A stretch of 64,000 nucleotides of DNA from Argiope bruennichi. Lineage: Eukaryota. Under the pieces are notes generated by a model. That model saw only the letters and a list, made by a program, of their open reading frames with translations. It had not been told where the DNA came from and did no database searches. Made by a program: the position numbers and the translations under genes. Where the stretch lies: NCBI RefSeq assembly GCF_947563725.1, contig NC_079159.1, positions 100,113,559-100,177,558 of the forward strand, written 5' to 3'. Positions 1,728 through 60,609 of the stretch are shown piece by piece (positions within the stretch are counted from its first letter, which is position 1; each line of letters begins with the position of its first letter).

Positions 1728-3150
1728 TTGTCATAACTACTTGTTTTGAGTATATTTATAAAACATTTTTCTGCAAATATTATTTTTGATTAAAAAAAAT
1801 GCTTCTGAAGTTATATTTCCCCCCCATTAGCACATTATAAATTATGTATTCTATAAATCTGAAATTCATCAAAAGCCAGAATTATTGTGTTTACATTATT
1901 TTATTCTATTACTCTTAAACATCATATCATTCTCCTTAACAATTAGTTTAGCAAACTGTCAATATTTTTTTTTTCTGACACAAACTGAAGATTGCTTTAA
2001 GTATATTTGACATATATATTTAGAGGTTGTTATTTAAATCAAAATACCCACTGCCAAAAATCTGTGTTGAAATTGAAAATAAATATTTTAAATATCATTA
2101 CTTTTTTTATGAAGGAAATCAAAAGATGGAACAATTATAAATAAATGAATTACGGAATAATAAAAAAAAAATTCCAATCTTTTTTTAAATAATTATCATT
2201 TACCCTTGACCAAAATCCATTACAAAATTTCACAGGCCTAATGATATAGAGTAGTATGCCTTAGGCACCAATCATAGAAGACACCATAGTGACAAAACTA
2301 ATGTGTTCATAAGATTTTTAAACCAAATATTATAAGGTAGTGAAAAAACACAGAATCTCTATGGCTAATGGAAGTGAGAATGAAAAACTAAATTATACAT
2401 CAGCTATCATTTACATTGACTCTCACATTCACATTTAAAGGAGCTAAACTTATGAATAACTGTATATATTTTAGAACAATACAGATATAATATATATTTT
2501 AGCATATGTTTGAATCCTCCTGCAAGAATTCTATTTACTTACCTCTCACATAGTTACTCTGCCATTTTTCTTAACTTAATAGTTACAGGAACAGTCCTGT
2601 AGCAATCGAATCATAAGGAGAGGGCTATAGAAGCTGGAAAAGATAGATTGTAGTTTTAAATAGTCCGGCATTGAGATACTATTAAGCACGTTTACTTTTC
2701 TTTTTAAAGTAAATATGACAGGGGAGGAAGAAAAATAATATTTTTACCAGATTTATTTTTGCTATATAAAAGCACATTGAATGCGATCTAGAGTTGTAAC
2801 TCTGTTGAGTTTACATAAAGTTGTGAATATATACTTAAAGAGATTAACTATTTTCATTAGAAAAGAATTAGTTTTATTTCTGTTTTCCAAAGGGAAATAT
2901 TAATGTAATTGGTCATAAAGAGCTCAAATAGATAGAGACATCTAAGAATATTTTCTGAATATATATATTAGTATTTATTCTAACCCCACTTCTGTACAAA
3001 TTTAAATTGAGATTAGAATTTTTTCCCTCGAAAATATTTAAGAAAAAAAAAATCAATATGTTCGATGATTCTAACCCAGGGATGGCAAACCAGAGGTACG
3101 CAACACAATATTTTGGGCATGCAGCTGATCAAAACAGTTTGTAAAATGGC

Positions 3151-3489
3151 TTGCATGTGACTTCATTTGATAAACTGAATTTTTCCCAATTCGATTGGTT
3201 AGAAATCGAAGAATTTGAAATGCAACTGACTGATTTCCAGTCTAGTTCAATGTGGATTCAAAAATTGATTGAAACAGAAAGGTTAATAAGCAACATAAGT
3301 AAAAATTCCAGTAACAAAATTTTGGAAACATGGAATTCGATTCTAGCATTTAACTGTTTGAAGAAGCTGGCTCATTCTATTTTAAACATATTTTCATCTT
3401 TGCCTGTGAGTCATTTTCAGAGAGGAATACCATTAAAGACTCACTTAGAAACTGTTTGCCAGTTGACTTCAATTCAGCCTGCATTCTGA
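3151..3489 (+). mobile_element. Possible hAT-superfamily transposase C-terminal (dimerisation, hATC-like) domain relic
   Basis: The 112-aa ORF reads ...FSQFDWLEIEEFEMQLTDFQSSSMWIQKLIE...; the '..Q L.DFQ.. ..W..KL' pattern resembles hAT (Charlie/Buster-type) C-terminal domains. It is an isolated fragment in AT-rich non-coding DNA with no upstream DDE domain. Confidence 0.25.
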
Positions 3490-48000: not shown

Positions 48001-50137
48001 TCATACTTTATTCTACTGAAAAAGTTAAAATTGTGTTGCAATTTTTTTTTCTAAATTTTAATTAATGCTAAAATTTATTTTTTTATTTGGAAAGAGCTGT
48101 TGAATTGAGCCGTTTTGCTCATGATATTTTCAAGACAGTTTGTCACCCATTCACCCCCTTTTTTTTTTTTTTTTTTTTTTTTTTTGTCTAAAAGGATGGA
48201 ATCAATTCCAACTCTACTAACCTGAGAACATGCATGATTCCAGGACAGCATCGAGGCTGGCAAATGAAAGCAAGCAGGGAGCAAGGCTCCCTAGTTATAT
48301 ATAATTTTATTACAACTATGTTTAATTTTAAAAAAAGAAAAAATCATCTACTGTGTATACTGTGTAAAAGAATATTTGGGGTATTACTAAGAACAATGAA
48401 TAATGCTAATAGTAATAAGAGATAATAACGAAAACATTACCACAAGAATTTCATTAAAGAAAATAAAACGAGTGTAGCACAATCAAGATACTGTATAGTT
48501 ATCTTATCTTCTCTTTCCTTGAGATCATTATTATGTCTTTAATTTATTTGATGATTAGTTCAGTTTGTGTTTATTTACAATAATCTAAAAGGATTAATCA
48601 TTATTATGCTGGCAACCACTACATGAACAACATTAGCAGACATAAAACTAAATTCTTTTTAATCAACATATCTTATGGTTATTAGTAATCCATAAATATA
48701 AGTTTACTGTATTTACCTCGCAGACAGTCAAATGTCTGAATTTTAAAACTAATCTGCAGTCTAGTAATGTATGCGGGAATATAAAATTATTTGCAAAAGG
48801 GATGCCGTAAAATATTTACTAAAGTGCATATAAAAAAAATGAGATTGATTTAAGCAATTGCGAAGGAACGGGATTATGCTATGCAAAATATTTTTGTGCA
48901 CAGCTGACCAAGATCTCTGGCTGAAGTCGCCTTTTTATGTTTTATTAGTAGTGATCATCTTTGAATATTTATAGCATTGTGATCTGGAGTGTTGAGGAGC
49001 ATGAATACATTTTTGGTCCTGATTATTTTTTTAATAAAAAGTTTAATGAGGAAGAAAGTGTAAGAACCTCCTTAAATATGAAGTGAATTTTTATCAAATA
49101 TTTATTCTTGAAAAATATGACTAATATCTCAAATTAAGATAAGTACTGTCGCTGACAATTGGTGATGAAAAGTATTTAAAAAGGATAAACATTTAAATGT
49201 ATTTGATCAGAAAAATCTTAATATTTTTATATCAAAATTTTATGTTGAAATTACTTAATTCTAGTATACCTTGAAATCCACATATATTTTAAACATTTGC
49301 ATTGTTTACAAATTTGGAATTATATTTGATCAAAAATAAAATATCAAATTATGCACTGATTTTTCCACATGTTTAATTCTAAAATAAAATAATCATATAA
49401 GTGATAAAAAAAGGAATTTTATTTCGAAATGATCCTTTTTTTACCCTTACCATTAAACACTCCATGTTTTCCTTACATTTTCCCTCTTGTCCTATGCATT
49501 AGAGCATTCTGATACTGATTAAATTATGATTACACTAGTGAGTATAGAAAACGGTTTTGCAAAATAGAGAATTACAAAAATATCCTAGTACAAAGAACAA
49601 GTGAGAATTATATTACGAAGGATTTTTTATTCTTATACTTATGGGTAGCTTGTATTTTTAAAAAATGGTAACTTCTCTGTACATAAAATAAAACATAAAT
49701 ATGTATTTTGTTCTATGTCACTTCATGTGGCTTGTTTACTTTTGGTTGAACACATGTTCTTTATTGACTAATTAAAAGTATTGAGTATAAAATGTCTGAG
49801 ATAAATCTAATCCCTTCTGACTACTGTATTGTTACAAGTAACAGTTGATTGACATATTATAAAAGTGTGATTCAGTCTATCACACTAGAAATGCTATAGA
49901 GTTTGATTTTTAATTATTAATTTTACTTTAATAAGCTCTGTGGATGATTAATTGTTTTTGAGGTGTATAAAGATGTGTGTTCAAACAGATGAATTGAGTC
50001 TGATGAAAGAGGTGAATTATTATTCGACTAAAATACTGTAGGGTTAAATCAATTTTGGTACACTTCCTTCTGGATAAGACAAGGAAGACTGCTGAAATAA
50101 ATGGAATAATTTACAAACTGGTTAGAAGAAACTGAAT

Positions 50138-50625
50138 GTAGCGAGTGGATTTTGAAGCGTTAGGAAATAAACGTTCATAGATGGCGCTAGACAACTAGCG
50201 CGAGTGTAATTAAAAGAGTGATGTCATTCGAGTGTTTGCTCTTGGAGGAGAAGGAGTTACTGAGCAGAGTAACTCGAACGAATCTGCAATAAATTTGTTA
50301 AGTTTTCTATTTGCCTATTTTTTCAAAGCACTCACGAACCAGCCACGACATTTGGCGCAGTCGACAGGATTCGAACCTGTGCGGGGAAACCCCAATGGAT
50401 TTCGAGTCCATCCAAATGTCGTGGCTGGTTCGTGAGTGCTTTGAAAAAATAGGCAAGTAGAAAACTTAACAAATTTATTGCAGATTCGTTCGAGTTACTC
50501 TGCTCAGTAACTCCTTCTCCTCCAAGAGCAAACACTCGAATGACATCACTCTTTTAATTACACTCGCGCTAGTTGTCTAGCGCCATCTATGAACGTTTAT
50601 TTCCTAACGCTTTAAAATCCAATCA
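50138..50625. repeat. Near-perfect palindrome (inverted repeat) with ~215-bp arms and a 56-bp tRNA-derived centre
   Basis: The left arm, about 50138-50355, is the reverse complement of the right arm, about 50412-50625, with only a few mismatches. For example, ggattttgaagcgttaggaaataaacgttcatagatggcgctagacaactagcgcgagtg on the left pairs with cactcgcgctagttgtctagcgccatctatgaacgtttatttcctaacgctttaaaatcc on the right. ORF-track entries 50232-50435(+) and 50332-50535(-) translate to the same peptide, which is a by-product of this symmetry. Confidence 0.85.
50356..50411 (-). pseudogene. tRNA-Ser(CGA)-derived 3' fragment covering the anticodon arm, long variable arm, T-arm and 3' acceptor strand; the 5' acceptor and D-arm are missing
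   Basis: The minus strand reads ATGGACTCGAAATCCAT (anticodon stem-loop, loop CTCGAAA, anticodon CGA), then TGGGGTTTCCCCGC (class-II long variable arm), then ACAGGTTCGAATCCTGT (T-arm with a 5-bp stem), then CGACTGCG (3' acceptor strand). This matches the metazoan tRNA-Ser(CGA) consensus ...ATGGACTCGAAATCCATTGGGGTTTCCCCGCGCAGGTTCGAATCCTGC.GACTGCG. Where the 5' half should be, an inverted copy of the flank sits instead. Confidence 0.6.
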
Positions 50626-51600
50626 CTACACTAAATTAGCATGACGTATCCTGGAGTGATTTTGATGGAAGTCTTTACATATATCTGTCAACTGTAAATA
50701 TTTTATATCAAAAGTATGATTAAATTTGTAAATTACGTTTGCTTTCAAAAATTTGGTAAGCGTTTTTTTTTTGTGTTTAATTTGCAAACAAATGAAATCG
50801 ATAATTGGAATAATTGTGTGTCAAACAGTTATTTATTTAATTTTAATTTATAATTCATTATTTATTTTTATATTTTTATTTTGTATTATTTTATAATTAA
50901 CAAGTTTAATTTATAATTAAATTATGTTTTTTTAAACAAAAGTTCATTATTGGAGAAAAAAGATAAATGGAAGGTATCTATTAAAAAAAATTTATTAAAG
51001 AATACATTCTTCCCTAGTAGTAAATGTATTGATATCAACTTTCCAACCAAGTTATGAGAATGGAAAGTGAAGATCATTCATTTCGCAAAGCTCATTCTAG
51101 TTCAATAAACGATTTTGAAAGCGTATTTGAAACTTTATCTTCTAAGATAATCCCAAAGATGGTACAATGACATAAGGTCCCGAATAGAGCTTAAACAGTC
51201 CATTCGCTCTAAATCTTTATTCTCGACAAGCTTAATTCGATAAGATTGAGCATTGAATCATCTAATAGAATGAATCCCTCATCAGTAGCATAAGCATGTA
51301 GCTGAAGCAAGGATCTCATCACTATTTCTCGAAGCAGCGAGAATTTCGTTTTGGAAATATTAAATGGGACATAAATGAGCTTGTATACAATCCCTGATTG
51401 CGATAATGTCTTCGTATCTTAGTAGCCTCTAATATTGTGCCTGTTGAATTTGTGTTACAAATTCAGGCATAATAATGGTCTTGTTTCTCGCTACCGAAAA
51501 TGATCTCCCGCAGTTGTAGCTCGTGGTCGACTCGGATCATCTTCTCAAAACTGAATTTTTTGGATTGTAACTAATGCCAGGGCCACACTGTGAGACATAT

Positions 51601-51745
51601 TAAGCATTCTAGCAGCAGTGTGGTGACGCTTTATAAGCCAGATAACAGCTACGAGACATGAGAAATTTCATTTGTCTAGTGGTCTTGTTACTCGGCTACG
51701 AACCCAAAGGTTGCGAGTTCGATCCTCGCTTATCGCCAGTAGCAA
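51601..51745 (+). repeat. tRNA-derived SINE-like unit, copy 1
   Basis: gtggtgacgctttataagccagataacagctacgagacatgagaaatttcatttgtctagtggtcttgttactcggctacgaacccaaaggttgcgagttcgatcctcgcttatcgcc contains a perfect T-arm (GCGAG-TTCGATC-CTCGC) and a D-loop-like TCTAGTGGT, but the acceptor stem does not close. Confidence 0.55.
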
Positions 51746-51994
51746 CATTGGTGACCCGATGACGAAAATACACAACCTTCATACAACTGTTGTGGCGCCC
51801 TCTACCAGAAATAAATAAAAATCAATAAGCTGATAAAAAATCGGCCAATAAATAAATAAAAAAAAATGAAGCTGATAAATAATCAGCCAATAAAAAAAAA
51901 AAAAATGGATAAGGCGCAACAGCCAATATATCACCACTAATAACAGCAAAAACAGGACAAAAAATCGTTCGTCTCACCTCCGACGAACTGAAGG

Positions 51995-52135
51995 GGGAGT
52001 AATGTGGTGACGCTTTATAAGCCAGATAACAGCTACGAGACATGAGAAATTTCTTTTGTCTAGTGGTCTTGTTACTCGGCTACGAACCCAAAGGTTGCGA
52101 GTTCGATCCTCGCCTATCGCTAGTAGCAACAGCAG
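51995..52135 (+). repeat. tRNA-derived SINE-like unit, copy 2, a tandem duplicate of 51601-51745
   Basis: About 120 bp is near-identical to copy 1 (gtggtgacgctttataagccagataacagctacgagacatgagaaatttcttttgtctagtggtcttgttactcggctacgaacccaaaggttgcgagttcgatcctcgcctatcgc). The two copies are separated by an A-rich tract carrying repeated 'aataaataaa / gctgataaa / atcagccaataaa' motifs. Confidence 0.55.
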
Positions 52136-52939
52136 CAACTTGTTCAAATCCATTTCCGTTGACCCGATCACCTGCCATCTTAATAAGAGACTTCCCGGAG
52201 ACAGTGCCAAGAATATCTTTGCAGATAAAAGCAATAAGAACTCAAAATTTTCACAAATTATAAAAAAACAATATATTCATATTTTTCTTTGGGTTACATA
52301 TAAATAATAGATTCCTTGAAAAAGGTAATAGATGCACTTCTTTCGTTATTTTAATAAATACTACACAATGTCCTTCATATAAATCATATTTGTTACCGTA
52401 ATAATACACATTTCTTTAATGGTGAAATTCAAAAAAAAAAAAAAAAAAAAAAAAAAAACTGGTTGTACCTTAACTTTTGGAGGTCAATATGTCTTATAAA
52501 AATTCAAACAGTATTCCTTCATTAAAACAATTCTAATAACGGAAACTTCTAATGGATGAATTTCACAGTTTTTGAACCCTTTTCCAAAAATGACTACTTC
52601 TGAAAAGACAATTACTCTCTAAATTTCTTGGCTGCAAAAGGAAAGTTTCTCCATAGCAGTAGATTTAGCATTCGTACTCATAGATACGAGAAATGTGATG
52701 GAATCAATCTTCCAATCTTACAACTGGTACTCTGAAAATATGCCAACTTCAGGAGGTCTCAAATCTTAAATCCACATTTGTTTTTAGTTCTCTCAATACG
52801 TTCACTGAAGTGAACAAAGCTGCAGCTTTCGTTTTTGTTATGATGCAAAATGACATTAATTCTATAATTAAATTTGTGAGCCGTATTATTTCCCATTCAG
52901 TTCAATATACCCTTACTTTTTATTTTCTCGTATACATAC

Positions 52940-53490: not shown

Positions 53491-54330
53491 TTTACACCTC
53501 CCTGAATTCTAAAACTATCCGTCTGTATGGAACAAAGATAACTCAAAAATGCTTTGAGCTAGATAGATGAAATTTGGTTTGCGTTCTTTATATCAAATGT
53601 TTGGATTTTCATCAGATTTTGAAATTTATCTGCTCAGAGGAAGTCTGCTTGTCCGGCTGTTCGAATATAAATTAAAACAATGACTATAAAACGAAAAGAG
53701 CCAGATGAATAAAATTCAATATACACATTTGTTATCTATATTGTAGATATCTGTCTAAGTTTGAGTCAAATCCAAAAAGGAGTTGATCGTATATTGATCT
53801 GTACTTTCAGAAACATGTAAACGTGATCACTCAAAGACGCAGTGACTTAAATTTATTAAATTTCGCACTGGATTTTATGATTGCAAGTGCAGTTTTGTGT
53901 CAAAATTTTATTTCGGTCGGTTGAGATAAACGCGTTTAAAACAAAAATTAGATTTAACCGCATGTCAGGGATTAATCGCCAAAAAACTCGATAAACCAAA
54001 AGTGACACGATCGATGAAATAAAAATGCTAAGTTCACACCAAAGTTAATATTTCATAATTAATGTATGTCAATTCTATGACAGGCGTTTTCTGGAATTAA
54101 GAGAGAAAGTATGCGAGATTTATTATTAAAGCATATGCAAGAAATTTTCGGGGACACCCCTACCACTGCTTTTGAAAACATTTTATTTCTGATCTTTCTT
54201 CTATCCACCGACATATTAAATGAAAGAAAAAGCGAACATTCTGATATAACATTTTCGGATCTTTTGGGCCACTTTCCCCCAAAAAGTTGCAAAACCAAGA
54301 ATTTTTTCTGTTATAAGGAATATTTAACCA
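53480..54330 (+). repeat. Dispersed repeat family, copy A (unclassified, non-coding)
   Basis: Blocks within it recur elsewhere in the window. 53800-53930 (catgtaaacgtgatcactcaaagacgcagtgacttaaatttattaaatttcgcactggattttatgattgcaagtgcagttttgtgtcaaaattttatttcggtcggttgagataaacg) is about 75% identical to 55480-55620. 53518-53570 (ataactcaaaaatgctttgagctag) matches the reverse complement of 58790-58840. Confidence 0.5.
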
Positions 54331-54362: not shown

Positions 54363-55289
54363 ACAGTTTTTTTTCTGCTAAAGATTTGCCGTGTACTCAA
54401 TGAATAGTAGTGAGAATGAAACATTGATTTGAGGTAGTAGAATGTATCTTACTCGCACAAACTTGATATTCGAATTTGAAAAAAAAATTTGCGATGAATT
54501 TAAGCTTTTTTTCCAGTAATAACCAGCTGAAGGCATTTTAATACAAGCTTATAAACATACGTAGAATCAGAATGAATTCTGATATCCAACGTTATATCAA
54601 TAAAGTAATTTAATGTTGTGTTTTTGTAATGACAGTTATACGTAGAGAGTTTATTGTCTTTAAAGGAAAACATTCATAAAGGGCAGAATTTTCCTATTGA
54701 TTAGTTAAATTTTGGGCAATAAGCCGTAGCATTATCCTTTCGAAGATTTTTTAAAAAGACAATTGTATAGGCAATGGATCTGAAGGAATTATTGGAATTA
54801 ATTTGCTTTTGTTTTATTTTAAAATATAGTTTTTGGAACAGGAATGATTATCAAATGTTTCCAATGATCTGAGACATATAAACTGAAAATACATCTTAAA
54901 AAATAGAGGAGATTTTCATCAGATCAGTGATATTTAATTTTATACCAATTCGCTAGGAAGCCACTCGCTCCTAGTATTAAATTTCTTGAGTTGTCCTTCT
55001 AACTTCTGAAGATGAATAGGCAAGAATAGGTATTGATAATTTCGCTGTGATATTATCCACTATATATATATATAAAAAATGATGAAGTAATTGCTTGGTT
55101 TAAGAGGATTCAAAATATGCTTATTTTTATTGAAAGTGCGGCTAAAAATATATATTTCTTTGTTAGAATGAATATATACTTTATTGAATAATGAATAAAA
55201 CATTTGAGAGTTTTGAAATATTTTACACATTTCTGTCCTAATAATTTCGATATGCTTTTCTACCTTGCGCCAAATTTGCAGATTTTTAA

Positions 55290-55620
55290 AAATATTTGAA
55301 CAAAATCCACATCGAGAAAGACTATCTATCTGTCTGTATACAGGTGAACACGATAACGAGGAAACATAAATAGATAGATAGATAAAAAAAAAAATATGGG
55401 GAATAGGGTTAGCGTTAAAAATGTACATCCGTATCAGATTTGGAACAAGATTTGTCAAACAGTTGACCACCTGTCAGTCTACACTTGAGCATGCATGTAA
55501 ATATGAAAACTCAAAAACGCGGTGATTTAAATAAATGAAATTTTGGGTGTGATCTTATAATTACAATTGTAGTTCGGAGTCAAATTTTGTTTTCAGTAGG
55601 TCGAAAAGAAAACGTTCCAA
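55290..55620 (+). repeat. Dispersed repeat family, copy B
   Basis: catgtaaatatgaaaactcaaaaacgcggtgatttaaataaatgaaattttgggtgtgatcttataattacaattgtagttcggagtcaaattttgttttcagtaggtcgaaaagaaaacg aligns with copy A at 53800-53930. Confidence 0.5.
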
Positions 55621-56559
55621 ATTATATATTTGACTTGCTGATACTTGTGTAATAACCGCATGCTAAAGATTAATTCCTCTGAAAGAGGCAACTATTTCCT
55701 GCTAGTTATATAAAAATGCTAGATTCGTGTCAAGGATTGCTATTTTGTTACTATTATTCGTCATTGCCTTGTAATTAATATATATGTTCCGATTTTCTAT
55801 GAAGCAGAAAGCGCTCATGTGCGGAAAATTGAAAACAAAATTCTGCTCACTCATGGCATTTACGGCCTTTCCCATGTTCACCATTTTTTGCGAATAATTA
55901 ACTTTGCAATAAAGTTTTAAAGAAATTACTTTCTCTGTTTCGATATGTGACAGATTTGTGTTATACTCGATAGCTTCTGAAATTTTCCACATTAATGTGT
56001 TTAGATTGTTTTTGGTTGATATAATACTTTAAAATTATTTCATTGAGCAATTTCATTTCAAAGCTGGAGAGAATATCCTTCTGGATATTTTCTCCAGCTT
56101 TGACATGTGGTAATTACTGCAATGTGATCGCTTTCAATATTCGAATCCGAAACATAGCATTGAATTTGATGGAAATTGATAATAAGTAGATCGAACAAAA
56201 AAAAAAAAAAATCATTCCGGGATAAGTTATATAAATAAGATTCAATGAATAATGAATAAAAATGGAGTTATGCTATTCAGTGAGATTTTTCCTATGTTAA
56301 ATAGTTCTATTTGAACCTCATGAAAGGTGATTAAAATCGCTAAAAATGCGCGCAACATCGAGAAATGAATCGGCCAAAGCTTTCTTGCTTAATTATTGTT
56401 AATTGAGGCTTTAATGAGCATACAAATTAACAATAATAATTTTAAGTCATTGTAAAAAGCTTATATTATTACTAATTCTATGTTGATGTATTTCTATGTA
56501 AGTGTTCTGAGGGATTCTTCTCGGAATAGTTTTACGAGATGCTGTTGTGGTGAATAGCA

Positions 56560-56680
56560 TATAAGCCAGTAACAGCGCATCTACCCGAGCTGCTGTTTTG
56601 GTATAATCGGTTAGTTACAGGACTGCTAACCATAATGTCCCAGGTTCTATCCTTCGCGCATCGCCTATCACTTCACTGTC
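56560..56680 (+). repeat. Diverged copy of the tRNA-like SINE family seen at 51.6 and 52.0 kb
   Basis: ...ggtataatcggttagttacaggactgctaaccataatgtcccaggttctatccttcgcgcatcgcctatcac shares the T-arm-like 'gttc.atcct.cgc...cgcctatc' tail with the 51601 and 51995 units. Confidence 0.35.
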
Positions 56681-58189: not shown

Positions 58190-58860
58190 AGTTGTGGGAT
58201 TCAGTCTGGTCAAAAATTTGATCGTTAAGGGGGAAAAAAAAGGACCCGTAGGAGTTGTCACACCAAAATTTTCTCGCATAATCTTTTATAAGGATCTTAA
58301 TCCTCTTGCATCGCACAAAATTCTGGATCTTGCACAGCATTGGCGGAAATTAATTACGAAATATATATCTTTGTTATAAATCTAACAGTTTTACTGAATC
58401 TATCGTGTGAATACGTTTTTTGGATGCTTTTTTTTCCAACTGATTGTTACAAAATTTTATACGGAATTGCAATAGTAGTCATAATTTAACATATCGATAT
58501 AATTGATTTTAGTTATTGCACTTGTGTGCATACGAAAATATGGATCGACAAACGGCCAATCATTTGACGTATTTGATTCAAAATTTGATAAGAATCAACA
58601 TTTTAGATGCAAAAATTGTGTACCAAATTTTATTTATCTAGCTCTTAACGACTTGATATTGTCAAGTTCACTTCTATTTGAACGGCCAGACAAATAAACT
58701 TAATTTAAATGGATTTCGTTCAGAATTTAATAGAAATTTGTTAATTTGGTCTAAAGTCTATACATCAAATTTTTTTCTGCCTAACTCAGTGCGTTTTTGA
58801 GTTATCCTGTTGAGACAGATCGACGGACAGATAAGCAGTCATTGAGAATACATTTAGATT
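58190..58860. repeat. Dispersed repeat family, copy C (rearranged, mixed orientation)
   Basis: 58600-58640 (tgcaaaaattgtgtaccaaattttatttatc) is a direct match to copy A at 53888-53918. 58780-58840 is a reverse-complement match to copy A at 53518-53570. The small ORFs here (58194-58379, 58503-58697) have no recognisable domain. Confidence 0.4.
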
Positions 58861-60287: not shown

Positions 60288-60609
60288 CGAAAGCAGCAGC
60301 AGCTGCTGCTGCAAAGCCAGCAAAAACAGAAAAACCAAAAGAAACGAAAAAAGAAAATGTGCCTCCTCCCGCTAAAGCTGCAGCAACACCAGCAGGCAAA
60401 GCTGAAAAGGTGGCACCTAAAGGTAAAGGTAAATTGAGCACTGCCCAAGCTAAAGCAAAAGCTCTAGCAGCTAAGAAGAAGGTAGTAAAAGGGGCCCATG
60501 GAACCAGAGTAAGGAAAATTAGAACTACTGTTCAGTTTAGACGCCCAAGAACTCTTACATTGATGAGAAATCCTAAATATCCTAGGAAAAGCTGTCCCAG
60601 GAGACCTCG
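60288..60609 (+). CDS. RPL23A: RPL23A coding exon 2
   Basis: tctacag|(P)[12 protein letters not shown]...[52 protein letters not shown](R) aligns with human ...[52 protein letters not shown]. The donor reads cg|gtaagt. Confidence 0.85.

Follow-up and report, generated by a model that had tools for sequence, protein, structure and literature searches.

A probable terminal-repeat retrotransposon in miniature with tRNA-like terminal repeats in the spider Argiope bruennichi

In a 64,000-nucleotide stretch of the genome of the spider Argiope bruennichi (hereafter the window), two near-identical units resembling transfer RNA (tRNA) probably form the long terminal repeats (LTRs) of one terminal-repeat retrotransposon in miniature (TRIM) at 51619-52131, a full-length element of 513 bp and of the Helenus or 'TRIMp3' kind, with a third, diverged copy at 56.5 kb being a solo LTR. 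Helenus elements are non-coding TRIMs with tRNA-like LTRs, and their animal members make 4-bp target-site duplications (Kojima 2024, Biology 13:119, PMC10886601). The original prediction for this region described the units as tRNA-derived short interspersed elements (SINEs). Their repeated, mobile-element-like character is borne out, but their limits at TG...CA, a primer-binding site, a polypurine tract and one 4-bp duplication around the pair speak against SINEs. The coordinates of all features are collected in Table 1.

The two predicted units are real, although their limits had been drawn differently: each is 129 nt long (Table 1) instead of spanning 51601-51745 and 51995-52135. They are identical at 126 of 129 positions (97.7%), with mismatches at unit positions 52, 112 and 119, and their starts lie 384 nt apart, which gives the element an overall layout of 129 + 255 + 129 = 513 bp. 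The limits were fixed by where the LTR-LTR alignment stops, and its ends coincide exactly with the TG...CA termini (TGTGGTGA...GTAGCAACA). The G+C content of the LTRs is 46%, against 27% for the window. Around each single unit, where the original prediction had proposed to look for target-site duplications, there is none of 7-20 bp; instead, one 4-bp duplication, GCAG, brackets the LTR pair as a whole. The 4-mers GCAG and CTGT, the latter duplicated around the solo LTR, have frequencies of 0.19% and 0.35% in the window, and the chance that two flanking 4-mers match in such an AT-rich window is about 0.01. The ORFs (open reading frames) spanning the element, including one of 86 aa across unit 2, had no homologues in a protein-database search and, as had been suggested, are not genes. 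When LTR motifs were used as exact patterns against collections of metagenomes and prokaryote genomes, there were zero matches, as expected for spider DNA. A long LTR hairpin predicted in units 1 and 2 (z about -2 to -3) was dropped as a conserved structure, because its pairing partners occupy different alignment columns in the diverged copy.

The window was compared with the other A. bruennichi assembly, GCA_015342795.1, through two stretches of the latter, L001 (99.8% identity to the window) and L002 (99.4%), which show many small indels and one large one relative to it; chromosome CM027190.1 of that assembly exactly encodes the window's EMC1 ORF. Because of these indels, two A. bruennichi haplotypes or assemblies can be compared. 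All junctions of the element and of the solo LTR, including the GCAG and CTGT duplications, are identical in the second assembly. Taking the window and the other assembly together, 2-3 differences separate the two LTRs over their 129 positions, a divergence that would roughly place the insertion a few million years ago under an assumed arthropod-like mutation rate.

The A-rich stretch with periodic motifs between the units had been interpreted as a duplicated SINE tail. Its periodicity corresponds to a 42-bp tandem duplication whose halves are 81% identical, but the stretch appears to be the non-coding internal domain of the element. One nucleotide past the 5' LTR it presents a candidate primer-binding site (T+TGGTGACCCGATGACG), the first 9 nt of which are contiguously complementary to the 3' end of tRNA-Trp in the published Apis mellifera sequence (Kojima 2024, Fig. 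S2A). At the other end the domain terminates in ...gaagggggagtaa, with the polypurine tract GAAGGGGGAG and TAA immediately preceding the 3' LTR. The same domain is recognized in an extra copy carried by L002 (nhmmer E 4.5e-42), in which the primer-site motif is kept, and in an old copy at 49.4-49.8 kb (E 5.8e-6). The occurrence of the same short non-coding domain in three copies argues for a non-autonomous family and not for one accidental deletion derivative.

Within each LTR lies a tRNA-like segment with a perfect T arm, GCGAG-TTCGATC-CTCGC, which consists of a 5-bp T stem and a canonical T loop; the textbook T arm and the D-loop-like box of the original description are both present. The latter is a box A-like TCTAGTGGTC situated 40 nt upstream of a box B-like GAGTTCGATCC in each unit (at 51675 and 51715, respectively, in the 5' LTR). 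The spacing of the two boxes, proposed earlier as a check, is compatible with an RNA polymerase III (Pol III) promoter of the tRNA-gene type, as judged by general knowledge of tRNA genes. The reported lack of a complete cloverleaf is also confirmed: ARAGORN found no tRNA gene in the window, and the Rfam tRNA model RF00005 scored 18.5 bits (gathering score 29) in an alignment limited to its positions 10-63, in which the D and anticodon stems are weak, ACG occupies the anticodon position and the acceptor stem is left unaligned. On these grounds a functional tRNA gene was rejected. No 5S rRNA match appeared in the Rfam scans, and the small-RNA similarity is limited to tRNA. In addition, TTTT stands directly upstream of box A in the 3' LTR, in the 5' LTR of the other haplotype, in the solo LTR and in a relative from Trichonephila inaurata. 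The role of the tRNA-like part is probably that of an internal Pol III promoter and not that of a tRNA.

The third copy, correctly recognized as a diverged relative, is homologous over its full length (56546-56675) to both units, with E ~1e-4 in single-sequence nhmmer searches. Its limits are TG...CA, as in the full element, and it is flanked by its own 4-bp duplication. Past it there is no primer-binding site or TGG motif, as suits a solo LTR. The Rfam tRNA model gives no match in this copy; GGTTC is still present in it, and every young LTR has a perfect T arm. Beyond these three units, single-sequence nhmmer searches detected no further LTR copy in the window.

Table 1. Features of the element, its relatives and its surroundings in the window
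Feature	Position	Strand	Remarks
EMC1, 914 aa	8757-11501	-	uninterrupted ORF
NAC-alpha (nascent polypeptide-associated complex alpha), 218 aa	12145-12801	+	uninterrupted ORF
Old degenerate family copy (internal domain and decayed LTRs)	49400-49807	+	limits approximate; nhmmer with L002 copy as query, E 5.8e-6 over 49491-49751
Empty site; extra 472-bp copy here in L002 (59-530)	49807-49808	+	assembly comparison
5' target-site duplication GCAG	51615-51618	+	same 4-mer directly after 3' LTR
5' LTR, 129 nt, TGTGGTGA...GTAGCAACA	51619-51747	+	aligned to 3' LTR
tRNA-like segment, 5' LTR	51674-51729	+	Rfam RF00005
Internal domain, 255 nt, A-rich, non-coding	51748-52002	+	between LTRs; homologous in two other copies
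Candidate primer-binding site TGGTGACCCGATGACG	51749-51764	+	1 nt past 5' LTR (T+TGGTGACCCGATGACG)
42-bp tandem duplication in internal domain	51817-51900 (51817-51858 / 51859-51900)	+	81% identical
Polypurine tract GAAGGGGGAG, then TAA, then 3' LTR	51990-51999	+	3 nt before LTR
3' LTR, 129 nt	52003-52131	+	aligned to 5' LTR
tRNA-like segment, 3' LTR	52058-52113	+	Rfam tRNA model
3' target-site duplication GCAG	52132-52135	+	same 4-mer directly before 5' LTR
Unrelated interspersed repeat, copy 1	53500-54170	+	nhmmer
Unrelated interspersed repeat, copy 2	55261-55768	+	nhmmer
5' target-site duplication CTGT	56542-56545	+	flank of solo LTR
Probable solo LTR, diverged subfamily, 130 nt, TGTGGTGAAT...CACTTCA	56546-56675	+	end-to-end homology with 129-nt LTRs
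3' target-site duplication CTGT	56676-56679	+	flank of solo LTR
Unrelated interspersed repeat, copy 3	58243-58841	-	nhmmer

The extra copy of L002 is placed exactly at the end of the older copy. The window reads ...GATAAATC/TAATCCC at this point and L002 reads ...GATAAAATC/TGTGG...CATCAACA/ATC/TAATCCC (slashes mark junctions), such that the ends of the insert coincide with TG...CA and its flanks are ATC/AATC. It shares homologous LTR, primer-site and internal-domain sequence with the full element, at 95-97% identity in the 5' LTR, 72-82% in the part proximal to the primer site and only ~50-65% in the 3' LTR. As reverse transcription should yield equal LTRs, this copy is not a clean new insertion; possible origins are the conversion of an old element by young complementary DNA, a microhomology deletion in the window haplotype, an insertion, or an assembly artefact, with 58 nt of left flank to judge from.

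In total, five related pieces are found within 49.4-56.7 kb of the window and one more in the other assembly, as compared with ~67 kb of surrounding sequence without copies, and the local nest of related pieces envisaged earlier is indeed present in the region of 49-57 kb. The clustering of the family around a tRNA-Ser palindrome may reflect targeting, local rearrangement or chance. A family that is still or was recently active in this spider, and that integrates preferentially near Pol III-type sequences (its own tRNA-like LTRs and the palindrome at 50.1-50.6 kb), would explain both the clustering within 7 kb and the 472-bp assembly difference, but we consider this scenario rather unlikely. 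The palindrome itself (50130-50355 / 50412-50637) has 226-nt arms that are 97% complementary around a 56-nt centre, and is found in both assemblies. Read on the minus strand, its centre corresponds to a tRNA-Ser(CGA)-like sequence with a CCA end, of which it covers the two-thirds on the 3' side, from the anticodon arm (CGA) through the variable arm and the T arm to the 3' strand of the acceptor, and is bordered by CCAGCCACGACATTTGG and its inverted copy; Rfam gives a weak tRNA-Sec/tRNA match of 22 bits. A retro-copied tRNA, primer read-through or a foldback element may account for its origin.

Several observations weigh against the interpretation of the 513-bp unit as a Helenus-type TRIM. The GCAG duplication lies in an (AGC)n-like context, the 5' flank at 51606-51618, CTAGCAGCAG, is similar to the LTR end CTAGTAGCAACA, and a remnant resembling a primer-binding site, GTTGACCCGATCAC, occurs at 52158-52171, 26 nt past the 3' LTR; it is possible that the full element was inserted into an older copy or an (AGC)n-like target. 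The primer-site match is established over 9 nt only, and the reference tRNA-Trp is that of Apis mellifera, not of a spider. The tRNA-model score is under the Rfam threshold, and the solo LTR lacks any match. The very unequal LTRs of the extra L002 copy are unlike the product of simple retrotransposition. A handful of copies were seen, all of them within ~7 kb of one locus, and both the Gypsy helper and transcription from the LTR are predictions.

Among the alternatives, an ordinary LTR-retrotransposon remnant fares best, even though it appears unlikely: the element would be an internally deleted Gypsy-type retrotransposon or a plain RNA polymerase II TRIM, with the tRNA-like stretch being incidental, for instance a decayed SINE insertion. 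The sub-threshold tRNA score, the loss of similarity in the diverged solo LTR and the inferential status of Pol III transcription would all be accommodated in this way. However, the short non-coding internal domain is common to three copies, so that the short form itself must have been propagated or duplicated, and the tRNA-like stretch has kept a perfect T arm in all young LTRs and GGTTC even in the solo LTR.

Less probable still are two tRNA-derived SINEs, either independent or duplicated in tandem, in which a tRNA-like head is followed by an A-rich tail and which were mobilized by long interspersed elements (LINEs), despite the box A/B-like motifs of the tRNA-like segment, the A-rich stretch past unit 1 and, in T. 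inaurata, a SINE-like element whose T arm is similar and whose tail is A-rich. The homology between copies, the diverged one included, opens at TG (TGTGGTGA) ~46-55 nt upstream of the tRNA-like part and closes at CA, and the sequences past units 1 and 2 are unrelated, leaving no common body or tail. Strings shared between the flank and the post-tail sequence reach at most 5-6 nt for all three units, a length equalled or exceeded in 61-92% of shuffles, and single units lack longer duplications, whereas it is the pair that is enclosed by the primer-binding site, the polypurine tract and one 4-bp duplication. Equally improbable is a strictly local tandem duplication of an immobile tRNA-pseudogene segment, which would fit units that are adjacent and direct and copies that were all seen within ~7 kb: a plain 384-bp event is ruled out because it would have copied the spacer, to which the sequence past unit 2 is unrelated, and the reading is further contradicted by a solo copy that lies 4.4 kb off and has a 4-bp duplication of its own, by the related units of two Trichonephila species and by primer-site and polypurine motifs in canonical positions.

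If the 513-bp unit is a Helenus-type TRIM, then its replication may be outlined as follows. The element encodes nothing, and reverse transcriptase and integrase would be borrowed from an autonomous LTR retrotransposon, for which the literature on animal Helenus, probably mobilized by Gypsy elements (PMC10886601), suggests Gypsy. A cellular tRNA, with tRNA-Trp as the likeliest candidate, would use its 3' end to prime minus-strand DNA 1 nt past the 5' LTR; insect Helenus elements use the 3' ends of tRNA Lys, Leu, Trp or Arg (PMC10886601). Plus-strand synthesis would then start from the polypurine tract that precedes the 3' LTR, and integrase would join the TG...CA ends to the target, creating the 4-bp duplication. 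The tRNA-like part would probably supply the internal Pol III promoter, and the solo LTR at 56546-56675 would be a remnant of LTR-LTR recombination. The sequence shows the repeat identity, the termini, the primer-site and polypurine motifs in their proper places, the target duplications, the internal domain in three copies and the similarity to the tRNA model, whereas the identity of the primer tRNA, Pol III transcription, the Gypsy helper and any current activity are inferred.

Units related to the LTR occur in two Trichonephila species. A related unit in Trichonephila clavata (L010 6113-6215, E 1e-11) begins with the same TGTGGTG and is embedded in a ~520-bp terminal-inverted-repeat element (L010 5876-6397, CCAGGGGTGGCCAACCT ... 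AGGTTGGCCACCCCTGG) with TA at both ends. This larger element is missing from the orthologous T. inaurata site (L011 11124-11129), and the T. clavata unit was rejected as an orthologue of any Argiope copy. T. inaurata has another LTR-like relative (E 4e-4), as well as a SINE-like tRNA-derived element at L011 ~3040-3450, which has a T-arm region, CCCAAGGTTGCGAATTCGACCCC, similar to the one in the Argiope LTR and closes with an A-rich tail. This SINE-like element is possibly related to the SINE from which the tRNA-like part was acquired, and it fits the proposal that Helenus LTRs gained their tRNA-like part from a SINE, specifically by SINE2 insertion into a TRIM LTR (PMC10886601). No copy was found in ~22-30 kb at each RPL23A locus of Araneus ventricosus, Larinioides sclopetarius and two Caerostris species. 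The DNA upstream of RPL23A is unalignable between Argiope and Araneus or Larinioides; in the empty-site comparison the T. clavata locus was aligned over the RPL23A exons only and Caerostris was left out.

The element sits in the intergenic DNA that separates the MVP gene (major vault protein), whose last exon is at ~45.1 kb, from RPL23A (ribosomal protein L23a), the coding start of which is at 60359 with a conserved 5' region from ~59.2 kb. Elsewhere in the window, the single-ORF genes EMC1 (endoplasmic reticulum membrane protein complex subunit 1) and NAC-alpha are arranged head to head, and a 112-aa ORF at 3151-3489 (+) presumably corresponds to the C-terminal part of a hAT-type transposase, which it resembles when its sequence is judged by eye. 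Another interspersed repeat of ~500-670 bp, unrelated to the TRIM, is present in three copies, two of which match the first with nhmmer E-values of 3.9e-20 and 2.7e-28. A hairpin at 56054-56107, with 25-nt arms that are 92% complementary and a 4-nt loop, may be a small inverted-repeat element; its weak Rfam matches to plant microRNA families (MIR848, 28 bits against a gathering score of 90) are probably meaningless. An uninterrupted run of 28 A is located at 52431-52458, 300 nt downstream of the TRIM, with no target duplication linking the two.

The reclassification is tidy and of modest interest, as this is an otherwise ordinary non-coding selfish element in intergenic DNA. It corrects an annotation trap, in that a tRNA-like repeat of a spider genome is not necessarily a SINE or a tRNA pseudogene; the published repeat annotation of A. 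bruennichi contains only 4,643 SINEs and 20.5% unclassified repeats. The host range of TRIMs bearing Pol III promoters (Helenus) would probably extend from wasps to chelicerates, and a chelicerate host would support their repeated origin. If the family proves polymorphic within A. bruennichi, its insertions could be used as population markers. This species is studied for its rapid range expansion.

Among known systems, the conventional animal TRIMs (PbTRIM of ants, bivalve TRIMs and ta-TRIM of Echinococcus) resemble the spider element in their miniature LTR-internal-LTR layout, in having a primer-binding site and a polypurine tract and in their dependence on a helper. TRIMs without a small-RNA-derived promoter constitute the category 'TRIMp2' of Kojima (PMC10886601). 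Cassandra of plants and Ajax of nemerteans are closer in design, being TRIMs with a Pol III promoter of small-RNA-gene origin in the LTR and the same replication logic; however, their LTR insert derives from 5S rRNA and their duplications are of 5 bp, and a Cassandra-type 5S origin was rejected here because the Rfam scans gave no 5S match. SINE2 elements are likewise short, non-coding and interspersed, with a tRNA-derived segment containing box A/B-like motifs, but a start at the tRNA-like head, a tail, LINE mobilization and longer variable duplications are features of SINEs, none of which was seen in the spider element.

The likeness to Helenus extends to every structural trait that was compared. 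The spider element has short direct LTRs with TGT...ACA-type ends and a tRNA-like segment with boxes A and B, and its similarity to tRNA is partial, as in most published Helenus. Its non-coding internal domain opens with T+TGG... and closes with ...AAGGGGGAGTA; the primer site opens as in Helenus-2_SyJa (T+TGGTGACCC), and the sites of Gypsy-32_NVi and Helenus-2_SyJa are printed as 'T TGGTGACCCG...' in the supplement of PMC10886601, the spider domain opening likewise. Published internal ends such as ...ggaagggggagta are comparable with the spider GAAGGGGGAG+TAA before the 3' LTR. Duplications of 4 bp and solo LTRs with target duplications are shared, and 513 bp falls within the reported range of 311-1263 bp. 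When 11 LTR strings (8-13 nt) and one polypurine-tract string were searched against the supplementary text of PMC10886601, including its consensus file, only three strings, all generic, were found, namely that of the T arm and two 8-mers, of which one lay in an internal region and the other in an LTR. The difference lies in the host, as the arthropods in the published list are chalcidoid and cynipid wasps only, and full-text literature searches returned no report of Helenus, TRIMp3 or TRIMs in spiders. Given that this list includes no chelicerate and that the LTR, by string search, matches no published consensus, the element is classed as a new spider member of the already described Helenus kind.

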